A DNA stretch of 64,000 bases, from positions 1,859-65,858 of IMG/VR virus record IMGVR_UViG_3300048080_000202; one strand, written 5' to 3'. Below the pieces are notes generated by a model, which was not told the origin of the DNA, searched no databases, and saw nothing but the letters and a program-made list of their open reading frames with translations. The stretch's first letter is position 1. Each line of letters opens with the position of its first letter. This document shows, one piece after another, positions 7,199 through 46,734 of the stretch. Position numbers and translations under genes: made by a program. The DNA is from a virus.

Positions 7199-7585
7199 TT
7201 ACTTGAGGACAATGAGTTGTTGGTGATTTTTCCCTTCAACAGTAGTTTGCCAGCCGAAGCAGTGTTCGATGGTGTGGGAGAGTTCACTCCAGCCAGCATT
7301 AAGGGAGTGGGTGTGGCGACGAAAGTAGATGAGACGAAAGGGGGAGGTTTCGGGGGTGTCGGTCCAGAATGGCACGCCGTCAATTTCGAAGTGTCCGTCC
7401 CGAAGATCCACGAGATACTTGTGGCCTTCGCCCTCAAGTTGAAACACCTCCACCTCATCGTAGCGTTTCATAACATCGAAGAATGCGCTGCGAAGGGGGT
7501 CGGTGAGGGAGGTGTCGAGGAGGGTTTGGAAATACTCAGAACCGTCTGAGTATCTTACGCCAAAGAGATACTTTAGGGGTGTCAT
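7199..7585 (-). CDS. Hypothetical phage protein
   Basis: 128 aa ORF in operon context with 'LIYFRRH...CFGWQ' motif. Confidence 0.6.
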   Translation of the reverse strand: MTPLKYLFGVRYSDGSEYFQTLLDTSLTDPLRSAFFDVMKRYDEVEVFQLEGEGHKYLVDLRDGHFEIDGVPFWTDTPETSPFRLIYFRRHTHSLNAGWSELSHTIEHCFGWQTTVEGKNHQQLIVLK

Positions 7586-23415: not shown

Positions 23416-23690
23416 TAGTGTTTCGACCCACCCTGCGAGGTAACATCCCCCAAGGCGGTATTGGGGTTTCATCCCTCGTGGGGGTGGGTGGGGTCACTAC
23501 AGTGGAGGCATCTAGCACCATAGGTGCAGAGTGAACCTAAGCACTCACGCTTCCCCCAAGAAATAGACCACCACGCGCAATACCCGTTGAAGCTAGAAAC
23601 ACACTCGGCATACGCGGGGCATAGCAGCAGGTGAAATAGTGTGATAGTAACCTGTGGAACGGAACTCTAATCCGTCGGAGTGGTGGTCTA
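23416..23690 (+). ncRNA. Candidate structured non-coding RNA
   Basis: Long hairpin 23416-23499, then a multibranch domain closed by an 11-bp TAGACCACCAC/GTGGTGGTCTA stem with a possible loop-loop pairing. Confidence 0.5.
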
Positions 23691-33534: not shown

Positions 33535-34227
33535 ATGAGCATTCAAATCATTGGCCCACAAAGCTCCGCCTCACGGGCTCTCCTTCAGGAAATGTGCGAT
33601 GGTCTGTCGGGTGATCTTCGAGTTGTATGGGGGAGGGAGATGGATAAGTGGACGCAGTTGAAAATCTTATTTTCAAAAGCAGTTCCTATTCCTGTATGTA
33701 CTGACGATTTTGAAAGCGCAAGATTGTGGGTCGATCGTGGAGTAATCACATGGGGACGAAAAATCAATCATACTCAAGGGCGAGATATTGCTACAAATCC
33801 AGCATCAAACAAATGGCGTAAATGTGATTATTGGGTGGAAGTAATTCAGGATGTGAAAGATGAATGGCGAATTCATGTGATGGATGGATTGGTGATTCAT
33901 TGTGAGAGGAAGGTTCATATTGATCTAATGGGGGCAATGGGTTTTAGTTGTAGACATAGACTACAGCCTAACTTATGTGGTGAATGTGGAGCGATTCGCT
34001 CCCATCGTAACAGTTGGCGCATGATTCGTGACCGGAAACCCAGTTTGCGGCTAATGAAATTAGCGAAGAATGCTGTTGCTGCACTGGAATGGGACCTCGG
34101 GGCAGTAGATATTTTGGAGAAATCTGATGGGGCTGGGGCTGTGCTTGAAGTTAATAGTCGCCCGGGATTGGATTCGAGGACGGCAAGGCAGTATGTGAAA
34201 GGGATTCAGAGACGGATACAAAGATGA
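33535..34227 (+). CDS. ATP-grasp domain protein (RimK/YheC-like)
   Basis: 'EWRIHV', 'RSHRNSW' and 'LGAVDIL...VLEVNSRPG'. Confidence 0.8.
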   Translation: MSIQIIGPQSSASRALLQEMCDGLSGDLRVVWGREMDKWTQLKILFSKAVPIPVCTDDFESARLWVDRGVITWGRKINHTQGRDIATNPASNKWRKCDYWVEVIQDVKDEWRIHVMDGLVIHCERKVHIDLMGAMGFSCRHRLQPNLCGECGAIRSHRNSWRMIRDRKPSLRLMKLAKNAVAALEWDLGAVDILEKSDGAGAVLEVNSRPGLDSRTARQYVKGIQRRIQR

Positions 34228-34922
34228 AATCTCACGGTGAGCACTCACGTTGCAACGCAGGATTTTGGACCCCCTTTAACTACACCTCCGGTCTTATGAT
34301 GGGGGTGGAGCTTGAGGTGGAGGCTCCGACTAACTCTAATGTGCTCCTAGATATAGACTGCGCCATTGAATCTGGTACCTTCCCGGCGGTTGTGAGTGAG
34401 AGTGATTCAAGTTTGAACTATGGTATAGAGATCATCTCACATCCAATGGATATCCAAGGCCACTACCGTGTGTGGCCGGATATTCTCAAACTCTTGCGGA
34501 AGAAAAAAATGCAAGGAGATTTAGCGGAAACCGCTGGATTGCATGTGACATTTGAAAGTATTCCGTTAACTGCAAGGGCGAATCAAATACTCAAAGAGCA
34601 TCAAGGGTTGATTTGCTTAATTGCGGGGAGAGAATATAGTGTATATTGTAGTTGGAGTCGGATTTATCAAGAACACGTCAGTATTTATAAGGAAAGTGTG
34701 CTTGCAGACCGAAACCACAAACCCATTCTTGATCAATCCCATTCTGTTTACGAATTTCGGCCATCTCGAAGTAGTGTCAAAGATCAAAAATTCTTTGCGA
34801 GACTGGAGATGGCACAAGCATTTCAAGAATGGGCAATAAGAGAGGAGCCTGTGAAGGAGTGGCCGGAGCACATGAGGACGTATGAGAATTTGGGAGCAGA
34901 GATGAGGAGATTGGGAGTATGA
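34224..34922 (+). CDS. Amidoligase-like protein (paralog of 27504-28220)
   Basis: 'MGVELEVE', 'DSSLNYGIEIISHPM', 'AGLHV' and 'YEFRP'. Confidence 0.7.
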   Translation: MKSHGEHSRCNAGFWTPFNYTSGLMMGVELEVEAPTNSNVLLDIDCAIESGTFPAVVSESDSSLNYGIEIISHPMDIQGHYRVWPDILKLLRKKKMQGDLAETAGLHVTFESIPLTARANQILKEHQGLICLIAGREYSVYCSWSRIYQEHVSIYKESVLADRNHKPILDQSHSVYEFRPSRSSVKDQKFFARLEMAQAFQEWAIREEPVKEWPEHMRTYENLGAEMRRLGV

Positions 34923-35300
34923 CCAAAGTAACCTTTTGTAGCTGTATTCATCCCGGCCAGGATAAAATCTATGGTCTCGGGCTGCGCCTGCACAATTCTT
35001 CGAAGAACAAACAAAGCATCAAACCGAATTGGAGGTGTACGGTATGTGGGAGGGTGAAAGAATGCTAGGAACAACAAAACGTGAACGCCGCTCACGTGCC
35101 TCTAAACATTCCACCGCCGCTCTTTATAAGCCCACCAAATTTGTAGTATCATGTCCATACTGCCAAAACAAGTGGGAAGGAAAGATAAAGGGTATGCAAG
35201 ACGGGATGCGGAGGATGTGTTGAGACTAGCCGCTGAATGTTGCGGACTGTTTATTGATTTAGAATAATTAGATATTCACTTTCAAATTTGGGACAGTAGA

Positions 35301-36632
35301 ATGAAGCACACAATCACACCACAGAACAAGAAATTTAGCTGCCGAGCTTGTGGTTTGTTTCATCATTATAATTATCGACAACCCTCAATAGTATGGCGGG
35401 CGTGTGGGTACTGTGGACACAATCACAACCCCAATCGCGCACATTATTGTTCGCAGTGTCAGAAATTTCATCCTACACGCAAGACTTTGGTTGGGCCAAG
35501 GTTTCTATGTCCAAAACTTCAGCAGTGTGCGAGATGTGGGAAAGCGGGAGTTAAGTGTAAAACTTGCCGCCGTTGTATTGCCTATTGTGGATGTGCGTGC
35601 AGAAGTTGTTTCTCTTGCCACCAAAAAACAGCGAGTCTTTGCCCAAATTGTCGAACGTGCCAAGAGCGTTGCTGTCTATGTGGCGGGAGAATTGGGCGGG
35701 AAAATGCTGTTTGGCAACAGAGTTTGGTGACAGTTAAAGAAGGAAAAATAGTAAACTCTCTTATTGATCAGGGTCTCGGTCGAACTATTGGACTTGAGAT
35801 TGAGTTGTCGGAGTTTGGGACGATCAAGAAATGGAAGGGTATAAGATATACCATTGCTCATGACGTGAGTGTAAAACCAAGTGGAGAGGAAATAGTGTTA
35901 GCTCCCACTTGTGGGAGGGAGTTTCAAGAAAACGTTTATAAACTTGGTACAGCTTTGATATATTCACAGTGTGAGGTTAATGAAACTTGTGGACTTCATG
36001 TTCATGTGGATGCAAAGGATTTCGGGTGGTGGGAAATTCGGAAACTTTTAATAATGTGGTTGGGGATTGAAAAGGAAATGTTTCGTTATTTTGTAGACAA
36101 TAAAGATAGGATTAAGGATCGATTCTGTCTTCCATATCGTGAGAGTGGGGGACACCCCTGTGCTTTTATAATTCCTAATTTTGAAACTGATCTTACCTCT
36201 CGATCTATCCCTATTTCCACCATTAAATCTATGTGGATTTCTATGTTTTATGACGGAAAGTTTATACCTCACCCCTCCGGAAAACCAGAGCTTATCCAAG
36301 GATATGAGGAAGGTTATAAATCTCATAAGAAAAATAAATATTCTCGCCCCCGCTATTATGCTCTCAACATCCACTCCTGGCTATATCGAGGGACAGTGGA
36401 GTTCCGTCTTAAAGAAGGTACCGTGAATGGAGTAGAGATCCGAGATTGGGCATTATTGTGTGGATGGATTGTGGAGATGGTGAATAGAATTACTTTTGAG
36501 CAAGCGTTACAAGTGTATAATAAGGGTATCGTAGCCCTTCGGGATCTCACATCCACATCGGAGTTTTCTATTAAAGACACTTTCATTCTCCCAGAGAGTG
36601 TGAGAAACTACATTACTAAAAGGATATCATAG
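35301..36632 (+). CDS. Amidoligase with Cys-rich N-terminal region
   Basis: Many CxxC pairs, then 'IGLEIE', 'TCGLHVHVD', 'RYYALN' and 'GTVEFRL..GT'. Confidence 0.85.
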   Translation: MKHTITPQNKKFSCRACGLFHHYNYRQPSIVWRACGYCGHNHNPNRAHYCSQCQKFHPTRKTLVGPRFLCPKLQQCARCGKAGVKCKTCRRCIAYCGCACRSCFSCHQKTASLCPNCRTCQERCCLCGGRIGRENAVWQQSLVTVKEGKIVNSLIDQGLGRTIGLEIELSEFGTIKKWKGIRYTIAHDVSVKPSGEEIVLAPTCGREFQENVYKLGTALIYSQCEVNETCGLHVHVDAKDFGWWEIRKLLIMWLGIEKEMFRYFVDNKDRIKDRFCLPYRESGGHPCAFIIPNFETDLTSRSIPISTIKSMWISMFYDGKFIPHPSGKPELIQGYEEGYKSHKKNKYSRPRYYALNIHSWLYRGTVEFRLKEGTVNGVEIRDWALLCGWIVEMVNRITFEQALQVYNKGIVALRDLTSTSEFSIKDTFILPESVRNYITKRIS

Positions 36633-36634
36633 TT

Positions 36635-37519
36635 ATGTGTGGAATCTTTTGTCTCGCCCCCCAAAACGCTCGAACAATCACTATGGCCCCATACCTAGCG
36701 TGGGAGATTGAAGGTCGTGGAAAGGATAGTTGGGGAGCGACAAATGGAGTGCATATTCATAGAGAATTGGGACCAATCACAGATAGTTTCAAATTCTTTT
36801 CACAATGGGACAATGCTTTGTATCATACTCGGCAAGCATCCACGGGGGCGGTAGTGTTGGAAAATTCTCACCCATTTTATGCGAAGGGAGATAAGGGGCG
36901 GGTTGTAGGGGTACATAACGGAGTCGTATCAAATCATGTCGAATTGAACAAAGATAATCACCGATCTTGCAGTGTGGATTCTCAACACATTTTCATGCAT
37001 CTTGCAGAAGGGAGGGATCTTGGGGAGTTGAGTGCTTGGGGAGTAGCAGTTTGGTTCATAAATAATCAAGAGGATGTTCATTTTATCAAGTTCAGTTCTA
37101 CAGCAGACTGGTATGTTGGGGAGTTAACATGCCATCCTGGGGAATTTGTGATGTGTTCATATAAGGAACCTCTTAGACGTGCGGCAAAAATGAATGGATT
37201 AGGAGAAGTGGAGTATTACAAGATTAACCCGGGTTATGAATATATTATTCGAAACGGGAAGATTTTGCAGGGGCAGGAGATTTATAAATACCGACCCCCA
37301 GTAATGGTTGCACACAATAATGACAGCGCTTTCGGTCATGTTTATACTGGGGTTCATAATAGTTCTTGGGAGACATGCACAAACTGCCAAAATCACTATA
37401 TTGATGCTACCAAGGATCTTGTGTGTTCTGACTGCTTCAATGCTCTCACCAATGTAAATGGAGATATTCCTCCCACAGTTTGGAGAAAAAATGGGCCGAC
37501 CCAAGAAGTCAGAGTATAA
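36635..37519 (+). CDS. Class II glutamine amidotransferase
   Basis: N-terminal 'MCGIF', 'RGKDSWG', 'HTRQAS.G...ENSHPF', 'HNGVV' and 'VDSQ'. Confidence 0.9.
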   Translation: MCGIFCLAPQNARTITMAPYLAWEIEGRGKDSWGATNGVHIHRELGPITDSFKFFSQWDNALYHTRQASTGAVVLENSHPFYAKGDKGRVVGVHNGVVSNHVELNKDNHRSCSVDSQHIFMHLAEGRDLGELSAWGVAVWFINNQEDVHFIKFSSTADWYVGELTCHPGEFVMCSYKEPLRRAAKMNGLGEVEYYKINPGYEYIIRNGKILQGQEIYKYRPPVMVAHNNDSAFGHVYTGVHNSSWETCTNCQNHYIDATKDLVCSDCFNALTNVNGDIPPTVWRKNGPTQEVRV

Positions 37520-40746: not shown

Positions 40747-41267
40747 AACACAGTAGTTATGAGTGTGATAGATGTCATAAAACACACCTAACCCAGACAT
40801 ATTTTATCTCAATGCATAATACAACATTTGCACTAAGCCGATATGATCTTTGTGAAGAGTGTTTTAAGTTTATCAAAACTTGGATACTTAGACCATGAAA
40901 CTCGTCCCCTGTTCCTATGTTGGCTGCCGGTATCGTCGTGATAATTGGGAGCAAAAACCTGACGAACAGCCACGAGCCCATCAACAAGTCGAAGTCCCCG
41001 ACAACCACGAAGGCCCCGCATACTGCTCAACCGTGTGTCAGGTGTGTGATAATTTATCATGAGTTATAGTCGGGGAGAATTTTACGTGTATGACGACGGG
41101 GAATATATGAATATTTCAGTCGGCAGATATTCAAAAGCTCATACTATGTATACTCCAAATTTGACAAAGGAAGACTGGGATAAGATTGATCCAGAGTATT
41201 TGAGGATTCCTTTGAGAGTTTTTGATAAAATTGTGTTGGAACGTTTTAAAGATATTGTGGGGACATA

Positions 41268-41591
41268 ATGACTGACATCTTCGATAGAGAATTTCCGTTA
41301 GAGCACATTCTCGGGTGTGTGGGTAAAGGGTGGCATTCTATTGTCACCCGTCTTATTAGTGATTTGAAAGAACTTGGATGGGATGGAAATCTCAATCAAA
41401 TCAAGGAAAAGTTTGGTGGCTTGAGATTCTATATTGGTGCGGGGACAAAGGAGATATATGATAGGATCGCTAAAGCTGGGGATGAATCCTTAAAAACATG
41501 TGAAATGTGCGGGAAGTTAGGGAAGCCAAGAGGAACTTGGTACGTTAAAACACTTTGTGCGAAGTGTTTTCGAAGGGGACAAAAGGGGTAG
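41268..41591 (+). CDS. Conserved phage protein
   Basis: 'GWHSIV...QIKEKFGGLRFY...CEMCG' pattern. Confidence 0.65.
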   Translation: MTDIFDREFPLEHILGCVGKGWHSIVTRLISDLKELGWDGNLNQIKEKFGGLRFYIGAGTKEIYDRIAKAGDESLKTCEMCGKLGKPRGTWYVKTLCAKCFRRGQKG

Positions 41592-41594
41592 GCT

Positions 41595-41996
41595 TTGCAA
41601 AAACTGGATAAACGTTATATTGCTGGATTCTTTGATGGGGAAGGAAGCATTGGAATATATCGTAATAAAGGTTCCAAGGACGACCGTTATTTATCTGGCT
41701 ACAGAAGACCTTGTTGGGTTCGTGTTGTTACTATAAATGTTGCTTATAAATCAACTTTAAGCTTGATTCACAAGCAATTTGGAGGTTCATTTAGATTATT
41801 ATACGGTAGAGATAAAAGATGGAAGCCAATCTGGTCTTGGAGTATTGGGTCAAAAGAAGGTATCAAAAGATTTTTAACCTTTATACTATCCTACATAAGA
41901 GAAAAGAAGAAACAAGCTAAAGTAATGATAAGAGTTTGTAATAACAAGTTGAATGATGAAATTGCAGCAAAGCTGTTAAAAGAGTTAAAAAAATGA
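41595..41996 (+). CDS. LAGLIDADG homing endonuclease (single motif)
   Basis: 'YIAGFFDGEGSIGI'; AT-rich and free-standing. Confidence 0.9.
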   Translation: MQKLDKRYIAGFFDGEGSIGIYRNKGSKDDRYLSGYRRPCWVRVVTINVAYKSTLSLIHKQFGGSFRLLYGRDKRWKPIWSWSIGSKEGIKRFLTFILSYIREKKKQAKVMIRVCNNKLNDEIAAKLLKELKK

Positions 41997-42943
41997 TAAG
42001 CTCATACCCAAAAGTGTGGAATCTCGGTCACCGAGCAATCCGGGATCTATTCACCGCCCCGTGTGTAGTCGAAGAAAAAGTTGATGGCTCTCAAATCAGC
42101 TTTGGAATGATTGATGGTGAGCTTCATATCCGCAGTAGGGGTGCCACGATCAATCCCGACGCCCCAGATAATATGTTTAGTCTTGGGGTAACAGAGATCA
42201 AGAAACTTGCACCAATGTTGCATCCGGGGTGGATATATCGAGGGGAGTATCTGAGAAAACCAAAACACAACACCCTCACATATTCTCGAAACCCAAATAA
42301 ATATATCATTATTTTTGATATCCAAACTGGAGAAGAAACATATCTTGATGCGACCGATCGCCGAAACGAATGCTCAAGTGTGGGGTTAGAGGTCGTACCA
42401 ATTCTTGGAATGTTCGGGGGAGGTCTCCTTACAACTGATATATTGAAGGGTTTGTTAGAGCAAGAGAGTTTCTTGGGGGGCGTAAAGATCGAAGGTGTGG
42501 TCGTAAAACCCGTTGATTATAATCTCTTTGGTGAAGACAAGAAAGTTTTGATGGGGAAGTATGTCTCGGAAGCATTCAAGGAAAAGCATTCGAATGAGTG
42601 GAAAAATAGTAATCCAAGCAATGGGGACATTCTCCTCAACCTTGGTGAAACGTATCGAACAGTACCAAGATGGGAAAAAGCTGTGCAACATTTGCGGGAT
42701 GCTGGGACGTTGGAAAACTCTCCACGAGACATCGGGTCTATTATTCTTTCGGTAAAGAAAGATGTGCAGGAAGAGTGCGAAGACGAAATCAAAGATGCCT
42801 TATGGCGTTGGGCATGGCCACACATTCAAAGGAAGATTGTGGCAGGGGTGGCCGAGTGGTACAAAGAACGTTTATTAGAACAACAATTTGCGCAGGACGG
42901 GGTTCGAGACCCCGCACTGGCAGATGCCGGTGATGGTGTATAA
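41993..42943 (+). CDS. ATP-dependent RNA ligase (Rnl2-like family)
   Basis: Motif I 'EEKVDGS', III 'YRGEY', IIIa 'IFDI', IV 'EGVVVK' and V 'MGKYV'. Confidence 0.8.
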   Translation: MISSYPKVWNLGHRAIRDLFTAPCVVEEKVDGSQISFGMIDGELHIRSRGATINPDAPDNMFSLGVTEIKKLAPMLHPGWIYRGEYLRKPKHNTLTYSRNPNKYIIIFDIQTGEETYLDATDRRNECSSVGLEVVPILGMFGGGLLTTDILKGLLEQESFLGGVKIEGVVVKPVDYNLFGEDKKVLMGKYVSEAFKEKHSNEWKNSNPSNGDILLNLGETYRTVPRWEKAVQHLRDAGTLENSPRDIGSIILSVKKDVQEECEDEIKDALWRWAWPHIQRKIVAGVAEWYKERLLEQQFAQDGVRDPALADAGDGV

Positions 42944-42959
42944 CTGGGAGCACGGCGCG
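42889..42959 (+). ncRNA. Circularly permuted tRNA-like element (T-arm, acceptor hairpin, D-arm; YrlA-type topology)
   Basis: CGGGG-TTCGAGA-CCCCG T-arm, CACTGGC-AGAT-GCCGGTG acceptor hairpin, GTGT-ATAACTGGGA-GCAC D-arm, closed by TGCGC/GCGCG. Confidence 0.7.
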
Positions 42960-42965
42960 ACGACC

Positions 42966-43040
42966 GTGACCGTAGCTTAATGGTAAAACGATAGTTTGTG
43001 GGACTATTATATGAGGATTCAAATTCCTTCGGTCACCCCA
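42966..43040 (+). tRNA. tRNA-His(GTG), atypical
   Basis: GTGACCG/CGGTCAC acceptor, C73, encoded CCA, and ATAGT-TTGTGGG-ACTAT anticodon arm. Confidence 0.8.
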
Positions 43041-43101
43041 TATTTGTAGTACTATTTTGGTTCGCGAACACCAAATAATTCGCAAATAAGGAGGAAGTAA
43101 A

Positions 43102-43566
43102 TTGGCTGATTCATTTGATTATGTACACTTGGGAGACATTGATCTCTCCTATAAACCCATTCCTGCGGCGGTGTATACCCTTCAGGTGGTAAAGGGAGAG
43201 ACTAAGGAATTCCAATACAAGAAAGGAGAACGTGCAGGGACTTCTGGAAGTATGCTGAAGTTCCAGTTTGCAGTGACGGACCACGCGGAGTATTCGGGGC
43301 GTCGGCTGTTTGCAGCGTTCTTCCCGAATGACTTTGATTTGAGGAATCTCCGTCGTCTCCAAGACGCCACGGGGGTGGTTCAAGAGCAAGGGGAACCCCT
43401 CACCGAGTGGGCGGTTCGTCTTGCAGAAATCAAACCCACATTCAAAATCCCGGTGCTTCTCACAAACGCGAAGGATTTCTCGCAGAAGGGGAAGGATCGG
43501 TTAGATGAAACTGGGAATCCTATTCCCGAGAACACACTGAATTGGAAGGAGGTTTCACCGGCGTAG
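43102..43566 (+). CDS. Single-stranded DNA-binding protein (DUF669-like)
   Basis: 'PIPAAVY.LQV...MLKFQF.V...YSGRRLF' OB-fold pattern in the recombination/replication cluster. Confidence 0.65.
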   Translation: MADSFDYVHLGDIDLSYKPIPAAVYTLQVVKGETKEFQYKKGERAGTSGSMLKFQFAVTDHAEYSGRRLFAAFFPNDFDLRNLRRLQDATGVVQEQGEPLTEWAVRLAEIKPTFKIPVLLTNAKDFSQKGKDRLDETGNPIPENTLNWKEVSPA

Positions 43567-43678
43567 GATTGGGCAAGGTCGAAGGGAAACCTTCATTGTA
43601 GTTGGCCTAAACCCAACGGTGGCGGGGATTCCAGGCACCCTCAAGGCCCCCTTAATGCCAAAAAGCCACCGACTTTTT

Positions 43679-43755
43679 GGGGTTGTCGCCAATTGGAAGG
43701 CCGGGTGGGGTAACTCCTACTCCATATGAAGGTTCGAATCCTTCCAACCCCACCA
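43679..43755 (+). tRNA. tRNA-like RNA with non-canonical anticodon arm (no readable anticodon)
   Basis: GGGGTTG/CAACCCC acceptor plus ACCA, D-arm GCC-AATTGGAA-GGC and T-arm GAAGG-TTCGAAT-CCTTC. The anticodon arm is an 8-bp stem with a TAAC loop. Confidence 0.7.
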
Positions 43756-43777
43756 ATCACTCTACCAAGGATACATT

Positions 43778-43924
43778 ATGTTATGTGCATGGTGCAAGGC
43801 TCGAATAACGGTTGATGAAGAAGAATACTTCAATGACAAGAAATATTGTTCAAGTCATTGTGTGAATATGGCTGCTGGAGAGCAGCGGTTGAAGGATCGT
43901 TATGAGGAGAAGGATGACGAGTGA
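43778..43924 (+). CDS. 48-aa TRASH/FCS-type zinc-finger protein
   Basis: Manual translation MLCAWCKARI...KKYCSSHC. Confidence 0.55.
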   Translation: MLCAWCKARITVDEEEYFNDKKYCSSHCVNMAAGEQRLKDRYEEKDDE

Positions 43925-44004
43925 CCCAGGAGCAATTTCACTTTCAATCATAGGGATGGTGATACTTTATATTATCTTAATGAATAATAACGACAAGGGG
44001 ATGC

Positions 44005-46734
44005 ATGTCTGAGAAGCCGGACTTCTGCCAAAACTGCCCCATCAATAATTTTACAGAAGGCTATGTCCCTTTGAAACTCGGGGCCTCGGATGATCTCGGA
44101 GTAGGGGAAGCGGCGGGGGAGAATGAAAGTCGGGAGGGAATTCCGTTTGTGGGCGGAGCCGGAGTGTGGTTGGACTCCCTTTGTCGCTCCGCAGGAATGA
44201 AGAAAGGAGATTTGAATCTTGTCAATGTTATTGGATGTCAGCCTCGGGGTAATGTGTTTCCTACTTCTAGCGATTGGACCCACACTGATCACAAAACGGC
44301 TTTGGAAGCTGTAGAGTATTGCCAAAGAAACCACTTTGAACCCGCGTTGCAAGGGAAGAGGTGGCAGTTAGAAGTTGATACTACAACAAGCGATCTTGTA
44401 TGGAATCAAACACAAGTTCGCACTAAACCCTGGAAACGTATCATTGCCCTCGGTGACCACGCACTCCACGCTTTAACGGGTAAACGTGGCATCGGGAATT
44501 GGAGGGGATCTCCACTGACGAGTCGGCTGCCACTCCTGGGGAACCCCCCTCCTCCTCACATCATGCCCACTCTCCATCCCGCATATCTCATGCGGCAGGC
44601 AAGTATGTTTAGTATTGCCCGGAGGGATTTGCTGAAACCGATGGTGCTTCCACCGGAGAACTATGAACTCTATCCAACTCTTGCGGATGTTCAGGCGTTT
44701 CAATCCCCCGTATTTGCCTTCGATCTTGAATGGGATCGAAATGGAGATATCACACTGTGTGGACTTACAGATAGATTGTATCAAGCGATCGTTATTCCTT
44801 GGCAGGAGCCATTTATTGGAGAGTTAAAGAGAATCTTTGAATCCGCCACCGATATCATAGGCCAAAATATCATCATGGCGGATTGGCAGCATTTGGAGAG
44901 GTTGGGATGGAATGTAAAAGCACGCTTGCATGATACGATGCTCAAACAGCATCTTATCCAGCCCGACATGCGGCATGGGCTGCATTTTATTGCAAGTGTG
45001 TTTACAAACAAGGTGTTTTGGAAGGGTGGAGGAAAGGAAAAAGATGAAGAAGAAGAGGGAAATGTTGCATATGAAGCAACGGGGGCTCAGTGGAAGACCT
45101 GGAATGACCCACTCCGTGGGATTCCTCGTGAACAGGGAGGATATTTTGGATGCGTCTCCGCCGACGAAGCTTTCCGACTTTACAACGCGCGAGATAATGA
45201 TGGAACTTTCCAGGCTAATGTACCCATCCACCAAACATTGGTTAAATACGGGATGGAGTCCATATATTGGAATATATCAGTTCCTGTGGCCCACGAATGT
45301 CGAAGAATGTCCGGGCGAGGAATTAGAATCGACAGAACCAAGATACGAGAGGTAAATGAGAAACTCACCACAGAAATTACCGAAGTCGAACTCCGACTCC
45401 CTGAGGGACTACGACCTTTTGGAAAGTCAATATCACGAAGTCACCGATTGGATACTCCAATTATTGTCCCAAAGCGCAAAGAATGCCGAGGAACAAAAAA
45501 GAAAGCTCACGAGGTTTGTGAATGGACATTCGAGAAAGAGGGAGAGTGGGAGTGTCCAGGGTGTGGGAAGCTCTATCGAAGTGGGAAGTTGAAGGTAGTT
45601 AAAACAGAGAAGAGAGAAGAGATCAAAATTATTCGCCCCTATGCTTCTTCTCGGCAGCTTCAGGTGTATGCAGGAAGTGTGGGGTGTAAGGATATCAAGA
45701 ATCGAAAGACGGGTAGGAAGACCACCGGAAAGAGTGCCCGAAAGGTGTGGGGAAGGGAACACACTGAGTTTACCCTTGTAGACATACTAAAGAAACTTTC
45801 GACATTAAAGAACAATTTTGCGAAAGGGAAGCTTTTAGACTATGATCGAATATATTTTCAACTCCTCCCCCACGGTACCTCTGAAGGTCGTCTTTCGTGC
45901 AGAGGGCTTCGTGATGGAATTGACCCCAACATCCAAAACCAGCCTAAGAGCATTCGAGGAATTTATATTCCCGACTACTCCGATTGGGGATTTGTTGAGG
46001 CGGATTGGTCCCAGGGAGAAAACTGGCTTACTGCCTTTCTTGCGAATGATAGAGAGAGGCTTGCGCGCCTTGGCACTCCCGGATATGACGAACACTCCGA
46101 TCTCGCAAGCAGGTGCTTCAAGGTAGAGGTTAGTAAAACTATCAATAAACACCTGCGTAATCCTGGTAAGGTGGTTAATCATGGTAAGAACTATGGCATG
46201 GGTGTTAATCACATGCAAGAGAATCTTGCAATGGAGGGATTCAATTATTCCCTTGCAGATGTCAAGGAAATGAATATTGAATGGGAGAGGTTAAATGAGG
46301 GTACAGCGAGATGGCAGAAAGAAACGGTTAATAAAGTCAAGTCCCAAGGTTACCTTGAAAACCCTTTTGGAAGGAAGCGCTGGTTTTCGAGTCGAGATTA
46401 CGCTACCAAAGGTTTGGCTTTCAACCCTGCCTCAACTCTCGCGGACATGATGCTTCGGGTGATCATTGCACTGAATCCACGAGATTACTCTCAGGAGATT
46501 TCGAGTCTTGGGATTCAAGTCGTAGCCAATCTCCCCCCACAGTGGTTCCTTGCATGGACTGTGCATGATTCATTTATTCTCACAGGGCCATGGAAGTATC
46601 ACCGGGAGGCGGCACAGCAGTTGAGGGCGGTAATGGAACAGAAGTGGAATGCCCTGGATGGATTCAATTTATCCTGTGACATCACGGGGAGTGATGTTTC
46701 ATGGGGGGAGATGAAAGAGATTGAGGGGATATGA
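44005..46734 (+). CDS. polA: Family A DNA polymerase with N-terminal family-4 uracil-DNA glycosylase-like domain
   Basis: UDG 'CQNC...GEAAG...PFVG...NVIGCQP...HPAY'; exonuclease 'FDLEW'; polymerase 'TSEGRLS', 'ADWSQGE', 'KVVNHGKNYG' and 'TVHDS'. Confidence 0.92.
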   Translation: MSEKPDFCQNCPINNFTEGYVPLKLGASDDLGVGEAAGENESREGIPFVGGAGVWLDSLCRSAGMKKGDLNLVNVIGCQPRGNVFPTSSDWTHTDHKTALEAVEYCQRNHFEPALQGKRWQLEVDTTTSDLVWNQTQVRTKPWKRIIALGDHALHALTGKRGIGNWRGSPLTSRLPLLGNPPPPHIMPTLHPAYLMRQASMFSIARRDLLKPMVLPPENYELYPTLADVQAFQSPVFAFDLEWDRNGDITLCGLTDRLYQAIVIPWQEPFIGELKRIFESATDIIGQNIIMADWQHLERLGWNVKARLHDTMLKQHLIQPDMRHGLHFIASVFTNKVFWKGGGKEKDEEEEGNVAYEATGAQWKTWNDPLRGIPREQGGYFGCVSADEAFRLYNARDNDGTFQANVPIHQTLVKYGMESIYWNISVPVAHECRRMSGRGIRIDRTKIREVNEKLTTEITEVELRLPEGLRPFGKSISRSHRLDTPIIVPKRKECRGTKKKAHEVCEWTFEKEGEWECPGCGKLYRSGKLKVVKTEKREEIKIIRPYASSRQLQVYAGSVGCKDIKNRKTGRKTTGKSARKVWGREHTEFTLVDILKKLSTLKNNFAKGKLLDYDRIYFQLLPHGTSEGRLSCRGLRDGIDPNIQNQPKSIRGIYIPDYSDWGFVEADWSQGENWLTAFLANDRERLARLGTPGYDEHSDLASRCFKVEVSKTINKHLRNPGKVVNHGKNYGMGVNHMQENLAMEGFNYSLADVKEMNIEWERLNEGTARWQKETVNKVKSQGYLENPFGRKRWFSSRDYATKGLAFNPASTLADMMLRVIIALNPRDYSQEISSLGIQVVANLPPQWFLAWTVHDSFILTGPWKYHREAAQQLRAVMEQKWNALDGFNLSCDITGSDVSWGEMKEIEGI

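Follow-up and report, generated by a model that had tools for sequence, protein, structure and literature searches.

Introduction

In the current view, phages use their tRNA genes as weapons against the tRNA-cutting defences of bacteria. Phage tRNAs escape or neutralise tRNA-cleaving defences (eLife 2023, PMC10264068), the T5 tRNA-Lys acts against PARIS (PMC11464382) and a phage tRNA-Tyr acts against retron effectors (PMC11555353). The tRNA look-alike described here, which lies in a 64,000-nt stretch of phage DNA (hereafter, the window), resembles these RNAs in that it is phage-borne, has an anticodon arm that differs from that of the host and belongs to a genome with RNA-repair genes; in contrast to it, the anti-defence tRNAs keep a 7-nt anticodon loop and still decode. 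To our knowledge, all phage anti-defence tRNAs known so far are working tRNAs.

The closest described systems also include RNAs with a tRNA shape. The tRNA-like module of the Y RNA YrlA (RF02553), found in bacteria and phages, is a non-decoding tRNA mimic with T and D arms. In M. smegmatis, RNase P cleaves YrlA and CCA is added to it; the 'anticodon loop' of D. radiodurans Yrn1 has 6 nt (Chen et al. 2014, PMC4201824). Unlike the YrlA module, the phage look-alike has its arms in the normal, non-permuted order, an acceptor end that is open and carries an encoded CCA, and no Ro60-binding stem; a search with RF02553 gave no match at E values up to 10 in positions 41000-46000 of the window. [quoted passage not shown] Our element shares with mascRNA the Gln/Glu-type cloverleaf without an anticodon loop, but mascRNA is cut from a long non-coding RNA and has no sequence relation to the look-alike, to which the Rfam mascRNA model gave no match. 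By analogy, the look-alike would work like these known tRNA mimics, the YrlA module and mascRNA, while being a member of neither.

All plant viral tRNA-like structures, like tRNA-His, are characterised by pairing between bases -1 and 73 (N-1:N73) (PMC9976931). The look-alike has in common with the plant-virus 3' ends and with tRNA-His ends a possible N-1:N73 pair and a CCA end; unlike the plant-virus structures, it is a separate gene in a DNA phage operon instead of a genome end and has no pseudoknotted acceptor. The pseudo-tRNA gene 'tRNA-Other' of Bacillus cereus (PMC3399842) is reported to be tRNA-shaped, not to work in translation and nevertheless to have a phenotype; unlike our element, it is chromosomal, of a different tRNA type and has an anticodon that is not sealed. 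No description of a free-standing phage tRNA mimic with a sealed anticodon was found in the literature searched on it.

Results

A tRNA look-alike in a phage replication operon

The window makes up most of a 75,304-bp phage record in IMG/VR that is rated complete. The best match to its polymerase among 50,697 phage records was 23-30% identical, and the phage is without a cultured relative. On the + strand, genes for an exonuclease, a Sak4-type annealing protein, a LAGLIDADG endonuclease and an RNA ligase are followed by tRNA-His(GUG), o154 and the look-alike, and 3' of it come a 48-aa zinc-finger gene, a UDG-fused family A DNA polymerase and a primase (Table 1). The look-alike sits in the replication operon. 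The zinc-finger gene is present only in the window and in two relatives, L025 and L026; its match to the Pfam family VATC was sub-threshold (E=0.006) and this assignment was rejected.

The tRNA-His(GUG) genes of the clade (window 42966-43040; L054:1501-1574 on the - strand) have C or U at position -1, G1-C72 and C73, so that C73 is kept though G-1 is not encoded. The tRNA-His acceptor sequence GUGACCG is the same in two distant relatives.

Table 1. Coordinates of the look-alike, of its neighbours and of the abnormal tRNA shapes of the polymerase clade
Feature	Position	Strand	Remarks
RNA ligase gene (PF09414)	41993..42943	+	upstream; not strictly linked to look-alikes
Canonical tRNA-His(GUG), no encoded G-1	42966..43040	+	ARAGORN, Rfam
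o154, 154-aa gene	43102..43566	+	conserved clade core gene; no Pfam family; marks start of the tRNA slot
Base -1 (U), complementary to discriminator A at 43752	43678..43678	+	possible eighth acceptor pair; sequence
Acceptor stem 5' strand GGGGUUG	43679..43685	+	7 Watson-Crick pairs with 43745-43751
U8-C9, D arm GCCA-AUUGGA-AGGC, position 26	43686..43702	+	Rfam alignment; pattern as in E. coli glnX/glnW
Abnormal anticodon arm, 20 nt, 8 bp (3 G.U), UAAC loop at 43711-43714	43703..43722	+	sequence, fold
Variable loop CAUAU	43723..43727	+	Rfam alignment; CAUUC in E. coli tRNA-Gln
T arm GAAGG-UUCGAAU-CCUUC	43728..43744	+	Rfam alignment, fold
Acceptor 3' strand CAACCCC, discriminator A (43752), encoded CCA (43753-43755)	43745..43755	+	sequence, Rfam
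48-aa zinc-finger gene (CxxC...CSSHC)	43778..43924	+	start codon 22 nt past CCA
UDG-fused family A DNA polymerase	44005..46734	+	directly follows zinc-finger gene
Abnormal shapes described in the text	window element, L026:7402, L025:6405, L025:7272
Abnormal shape	L043:3626		6-nt loop
Abnormal shape	L045:2949		7 bp + GAUAG
Abnormal shape	L061		3 bp + 8-nt loop
Abnormal shape, class II tRNA (relative G006)	L055:1501-1598		10-nt anticodon loop CCCGUUAGGA, 10-bp variable arm
Abnormal shape, 58 nt, no anticodon arm at all (relative G006)	L059:1501-1558
Abnormal shape, doubtful	L062

An 8-bp helix seals the anticodon arm

The look-alike is a ∼77-nt element at 43679-43755 (+) with an encoded ACCA end, and reads GGGGUUG-UC-GCCA-AUUGGA-AGGC-C-GGGUGGGG-UAAC-UCCUACUC-CAUAU-GAAGG-UUCGAAU-CCUUC-CAACCCC-A-CCA. 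The Rfam tRNA model (RF00005) matched positions 43679-43752 from end to end with 41.3 bits (gathering score 29), at E = 1.9e-6 in a 5-kb scan with all families and 6.8e-9 over the whole 75-kb genome; the model bypassed the anticodon arm through a local end, with 22 nt in place of 18 model positions. The minimum free energy fold is a cloverleaf with a 7-bp acceptor stem, a 3-bp D stem with a GG loop, an anticodon helix of 8 bp with a UAAC loop, and a 5-bp T stem with a UUCGAAU loop. When folded alone, the 20-nt anticodon arm reached -8.4 kcal/mol, a value that 1.2% of shuffles also reach. Sequence, fold and Rfam alignment therefore bear out, well beyond chance, the initial annotation, which had placed here a tRNA look-alike with an arm of 8 bp, wobbles included, and a 4-nt loop. 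That annotation had also described the remaining parts as canonical; this holds for the acceptor stem, the ACCA end and the T arm and less well for the D arm, whose loop is one base short and whose 13:22 pair is A.A, as in E. coli tRNA-Gln. Alignment and fold revealed no defect in the body of the window copy.

Acceptor, D and T arms with G18G19 and a UUCRA T loop are present in the element; a 5-bp anticodon stem with a 7-nt loop, U33 and a triplet at 34-36 is absent. Direct reading of the anticodon arm found no register in which a 7-nt loop is closed by at least 4 bp, which supports the earlier claim that the RNA cannot decode. ARAGORN left the look-alike uncalled, its only call there being the tRNA-His at 42966-43040. 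The sole alternative fold of the arm, a 5-bp stem with the 10-nt loop GGGUAACUCC, would suit a decoding tRNA with an expanded anticodon loop, e.g. for an unusual codon size, and a second 10-nt loop occurs in the class II shape L055 of G006. Against such a tRNA, the loop has no U33-NNN-R37 layout, three further pairs shut it to a tetraloop, and the loops of sister elements run from 3 to 8 nt; we regard this alternative as extremely unlikely.

A tmRNA tRNA-like domain was also considered: the element has G3-C70 instead of G3.U70 and possesses a D stem, and the Rfam scan listed no match of the tmRNA model (RF00023) to it. Complementary targets of the anticodon arm were no commoner within the window than expected by chance. 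At window 23486-23500 (+), the sequence GGGTGGGGTCACTAC agrees with the abnormal arm at 13 of the arm's first 15 bases, with ∼0.1 such matches expected by chance on a rough estimate. Just upstream, an AU-rich 8-bp hairpin at 43658-43680 (CCAAAAAG/CUUUUUGG) extends over the first two G residues of the acceptor stem and might form at the expense of that stem in the precursor; in L025, the corresponding position has a hairpin richer in GC.

A Gln/Glu-type body that has lost glutamine identity

Alignment showed that the element shares with E. coli glnX/glnW the U8-C9 dinucleotide, the D stem GCCA/AGGC with A13.A22 and a CAUxx variable loop, and its acceptor stem is nearly that of a clade tRNA-Glu(UUC) in L060. 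When IMG/VR was scanned with the sister D arm UCGNCUAAUGGUAGGNC, 89 well-formed tRNAs were recovered, among them 61 tRNA-Gln (53 UUG, 8 CUG), nearly all of which start with U1-A72 and most of which carry G73. On these sequence grounds, the body is assigned to the glutamine/glutamate tRNA type. It is like canonical tRNA-Gln and tRNA-Glu (RF00005) in its cloverleaf with a 7-bp acceptor, U8-C9, D stem, variable loop, T arm and CCA, and unlike them in lacking the 7-nt anticodon loop and U33 and in ending with G1-C72 and A73, in place of the U1-A72 and G73 of phage and E. coli tRNA-Gln. Two IMG/VR contigs, L309 and L366, carry a tRNA-Gln(UUG) with C at the otherwise universal U of position 33 (loop CCUUGGA).

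GlnRS depends on the anticodon and on the U1-A72/G73 end (review PMC9976931). Using an identity set taken from that review and from phage tRNA-Gln genes (U35/G36, U1-A72, G73, G10), we found only G10 kept in the window element. Because the glutamine identity of the acceptor end is lost, the element is not simply a tRNA-Gln with a fresh lesion in its loop. Moreover, a Pfam search of the phage found none of GluRS/GlnRS, Thg1 and class II CCA-adding enzyme. With the anticodon and the acceptor marks missing and no such synthetase in the phage, GlnRS or GluRS is unlikely to charge the RNA.

The initial annotation had suggested that the RNA could donate an aminoacyl group to a 'ligase module', by which it probably meant the ATP-grasp (R2K, weak match), Amidoligase_2 and class II glutamine amidotransferase genes that lie in a row upstream, at window 33535-37519; the latter two are also present in L025/L026. 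Enzymes of the ATP-grasp, Amidoligase_2 and class II amidotransferase families use ATP and free substrates, not aminoacyl-tRNA. We found little support for such a donor and, given the chemistry of the amidoligase and ATP-grasp enzymes, no basis for linking it to this module.

Syntenic relatives carry abnormal tRNA shapes in the same slot

A search of IMG/VR with the PolA sequence alone found no relative; polymerase relatives were recovered with an alignment. Among 5.8 billion proteins, only three close relatives of the polymerase were detected (68, 66 and 64% identity), followed by matches of 53% and lower. L025 and L026, the two close relatives whose DNA was examined (polymerase 66-68% identical), are both syntenic with the window. 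Each of them has a tRNA shape with an abnormal anticodon arm in the slot of the window element, and in neither is the anticodon arm normal, as simple decay or an assembly error in the window copy had been expected to show. The abnormal arms of the slot partners differ from each other in sequence and length, so the expectation that homologs would conserve the abnormal arm holds only loosely: the abnormality recurs, its sequence and length do not.

The L026 element (7402-7470), immediately upstream of the zinc-finger gene, folds as a cloverleaf; its D arm is of the Gln/Glu type, its acceptor end has G-1:C73 and its anticodon arm reads CAGC-CGACAA-GCUG (4 bp, 6-nt loop). It lacks an encoded CCA and has a 4-bp T stem and a C at the U55 position. 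Its counterpart L025:7272-7342 has the arm GCCCCC-GUA-GGGGGC, two T-stem mismatches and a Thr-like, decayed body in which GG and C56 are lost. A further shape, L025:6405-6476, occupies the slot of the window's tRNA-His and has a 5-6-bp anticodon stem with a CAUAG/AUA loop. The body defects of L025:7272-7342 and of the L026 element look like decay. In the distant relatives L033 and L040, a canonical tRNA-Thr(UGU) follows o154, and many relatives have no tRNA shape in the slot after o154.

These observations bear on two alternatives. The first is that the element is a young pseudogene, a Gln/Glu-type phage tRNA gene with an insertion or rearrangement in its anticodon loop that has not yet decayed elsewhere, in a slot that acts as a hot spot for tRNAs. 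Such a hot spot would fit the unrelated tRNA types found there (Thr-UGU in L033 and L040, the Thr-like body in L025), and decay would fit the variable arms and the two defective bodies. The second is a cis-acting signal: the tRNA shape would guide an RNase P or 3' trimming cut between o154 and the zinc-finger/polymerase genes, or would stay as a protective tRNA-like 3' end of the mRNA. For such a signal decoding is irrelevant, and the anticodon arm would thus be free to drift. MALAT1/mascRNA and mitochondrial tRNA punctuation are precedents for tRNA shapes that direct processing in cis. In agreement with this role, the slot is conserved between the same two gene blocks and accepts any tRNA shape, canonical or not; the next start codon follows the discriminator base of slot elements at a constant spacing of 22-25 nt; a scan for an own promoter or terminator of the look-alike yielded nothing above chance; and the extended acceptor helices of L025:6405-6476 (4 extra pairs) and L055 (3 extra pairs) would hinder normal RNase P cutting. 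However, the relatives with an empty slot, together with abnormal shapes at other places in other genomes, make a processing signal unlikely in our judgement.

Exact IMG/VR scans for the abnormal arm and for the 3' 25-mer gave no match, the locus and the element, searched by blastn in 50,697 phage records and in every complete E. coli genome, gave only generic T-arm matches, and the D-arm 16-mer had 25 viral and 120 cellular matches, none of which was a tRNA. Relatives of the RNA ligase (L003-L024) were considered as locus homologs and rejected for lack of synteny, the ligase being mobile. The RNA ligase occurs in only two of 11 relatives, G007 and G016, and G006 has 3-4 look-alikes and no ligase, which excludes the ligase as a strict partner of look-alikes.

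Abnormal anticodon arms are in excess in the polymerase clade

To take a census of the clade, we combined ARAGORN, a simple helix scan, the Rfam tRNA model (18 whole IMG/VR records) and a custom covariance model (52 loci, 533 kb). This yielded 10 tRNA shapes with an abnormal arm versus 16 distinct canonical tRNAs (Thr-UGU ×8, His ×2, Trp ×2, Gln ×2, Pro, Glu), in a set that is biased towards 'only the anticodon arm damaged' by the need for an intact acceptor and T arm at detection. The abnormal loops range from 3 to 10 nt, and the arms have no common sequence or length. Every clade shape with U8-C9 and a Gln/Glu-type D arm was abnormal (5/5); by comparison, a 7-nt loop was missing in only ∼4 of the 89 well-formed phage tRNAs with a Gln-type D arm elsewhere in IMG/VR. 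The abnormal forms of this general sample were L271 (queried), L308, L349 and L360.

In the five U8-C9 Gln/Glu-type look-alikes, 63/65 acceptor and T-stem cells were paired and 11/13 pairs had changed on both sides, and the arms fold as stable hairpins. Overall body identity does not separate look-alikes from canonical tRNAs. A single shared ancestor of the look-alikes had been considered, and this claim was dropped because body identity does not cluster them.

How likely, then, is a pseudogene? Pseudo-tRNAs are routinely listed in phage genome papers, and other phages do show abnormal forms at low frequency (L308, L349, L360). On the other hand, the clade ratio of abnormal to canonical shapes is high for a short-lived state when set against the frequency elsewhere, pairing in the body helices is nearly complete, the anticodon arms form long, stable helices and are not eroded, the acceptor end has also changed its glutamine identity, and an excess of complementary bases at -1 and 73, described below, is not expected from decay. 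We therefore consider a young pseudogene rather doubtful as an account of the element, and the finding would be ordinary if this were all it is. The variety of the abnormal arms, which share no conserved feature, the body defects of L025 and L026 and the detection bias nevertheless keep that account alive.

Base -1 is complementary to the discriminator in most abnormal shapes

Nine of the 10 abnormal shapes can form a Watson-Crick pair between base -1 and base 73 (U:A ×4, G:C ×2, C:G ×2, A:U ×1), compared with 2/16 canonical clade tRNAs and 22/79 general phage tRNAs. Base frequencies at -1 predict 3.8 of 10, giving P(9 or more) = 6e-5 in a test that was conceived after inspection of the data. 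Abnormal shapes with a discriminator other than A were paired in five of five cases (P=9e-6); the window's own U-1:A73 has a 65% chance expectation. L026 and L061 carry G-1:C73, and these two cases may descend from a bacterial-type tRNA-His. A complementary -1:73 pair may offer a simple, testable mark for telling mimics from decaying genes.

HisRS charges minihelices with G-1:C73, and the -1:73 pair directs HisRS (PMC9976931). An RNA that is chargeable without decoding has accordingly to be weighed, in which the -1:73 pair would let a synthetase, most plausibly HisRS, load the RNA, so that it would serve as an aminoacyl donor or as a synthetase sponge. The possible N-1:N73 pair resembles that of tRNA-His and of plant viral ends, exactly G-1:C73 in L026 and L061, and the window element ends in ACCA. 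However, the window element has U-1:A73 in place of G-1:C73, no transferase that depends on aminoacyl-tRNA is apparent, aminoacyl-tRNA is not a substrate of the amidoligase/ATP-grasp module, and the phage encodes neither GluRS/GlnRS nor Thg1. Taken together, these points leave a charged acceptor very unlikely for this element.

A putative non-decoding tRNA mimic

The reading that we prefer, to which we give about an even chance, is that the look-alike is a gene derived from a Gln/Glu-type tRNA and retained because its tRNA body serves as a mimic that does not decode. It is favoured by the clade-wide excess of abnormal arms, by helices that are intact, by arms that are long and stable, by the -1:73 signal and by the abnormal shapes in the slot of both syntenic relatives. 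Its product would be an L-shaped RNA of ∼77 nt whose anticodon loop, sealed as a stable hairpin, no longer allows it to read codons. Host tRNA-processing enzymes would excise it from a long early transcript, RNase P acting at the 5' end and 3' trimming proceeding to the CCA, and base -1 might be kept as an eighth acceptor pair. The mature RNA would then occupy a protein that binds tRNAs by their acceptor/elbow part, and would itself stay out of translation. Our first guess for this partner is a host tRNA-directed defence nuclease or toxin, for which the RNA would be a decoy, and our second is one of the phage's own RNA-handling proteins. We infer that a decoy is the leading mechanism for a mimic; since the look-alike cannot decode, it could act against a defence only in this way and not as a tRNA replacement.

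More broadly, and somewhat tentatively, it is possible that the clade maintains free-standing, non-permuted mimics that combine a tRNA body, a sealed hairpin and a -1:73 eighth pair, and that these would be stable RNAs that either divert host enzymes directed at the acceptor/elbow part of tRNAs, as decoys, or act as acceptors that can be charged but do not decode. If so, a phage RNA that keeps the tRNA body and gives up decoding would represent a second strategy beside working anti-defence tRNAs, that of a harmless decoy or handle for tRNA-binding proteins, and such mimics would explain part of the 'pseudo-tRNA' calls that genome reports ignore.

Other unusual tRNA-shaped genes

Three further genes with a truncated or reduced tRNA shape were recorded. 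L013:7672-7751 is an 80-nt 'tmRNA' that consists of the tRNA-like domain only (Rfam tmRNA, 67.4 bits), with 12 nt in place of 306 tmRNA model positions, G3.U70 and an ACCA end; it sits between an RNA ligase gene and a tRNA-Thr on a GC-rich phage contig. In L024, a 124-kb phage that also has an RNA ligase, a short tRNA shape with a 3-bp anticodon stem (L024:699-766) adjoins a full tmRNA gene with its tag peptide (L024:874-1272). Finally, L049:13766-13860 (-) contains the 5' half of a tRNA-Lys(CUU) that stops in the anticodon loop near an integrase gene (L049:12203-13270), and it looks like an attachment-site junction.
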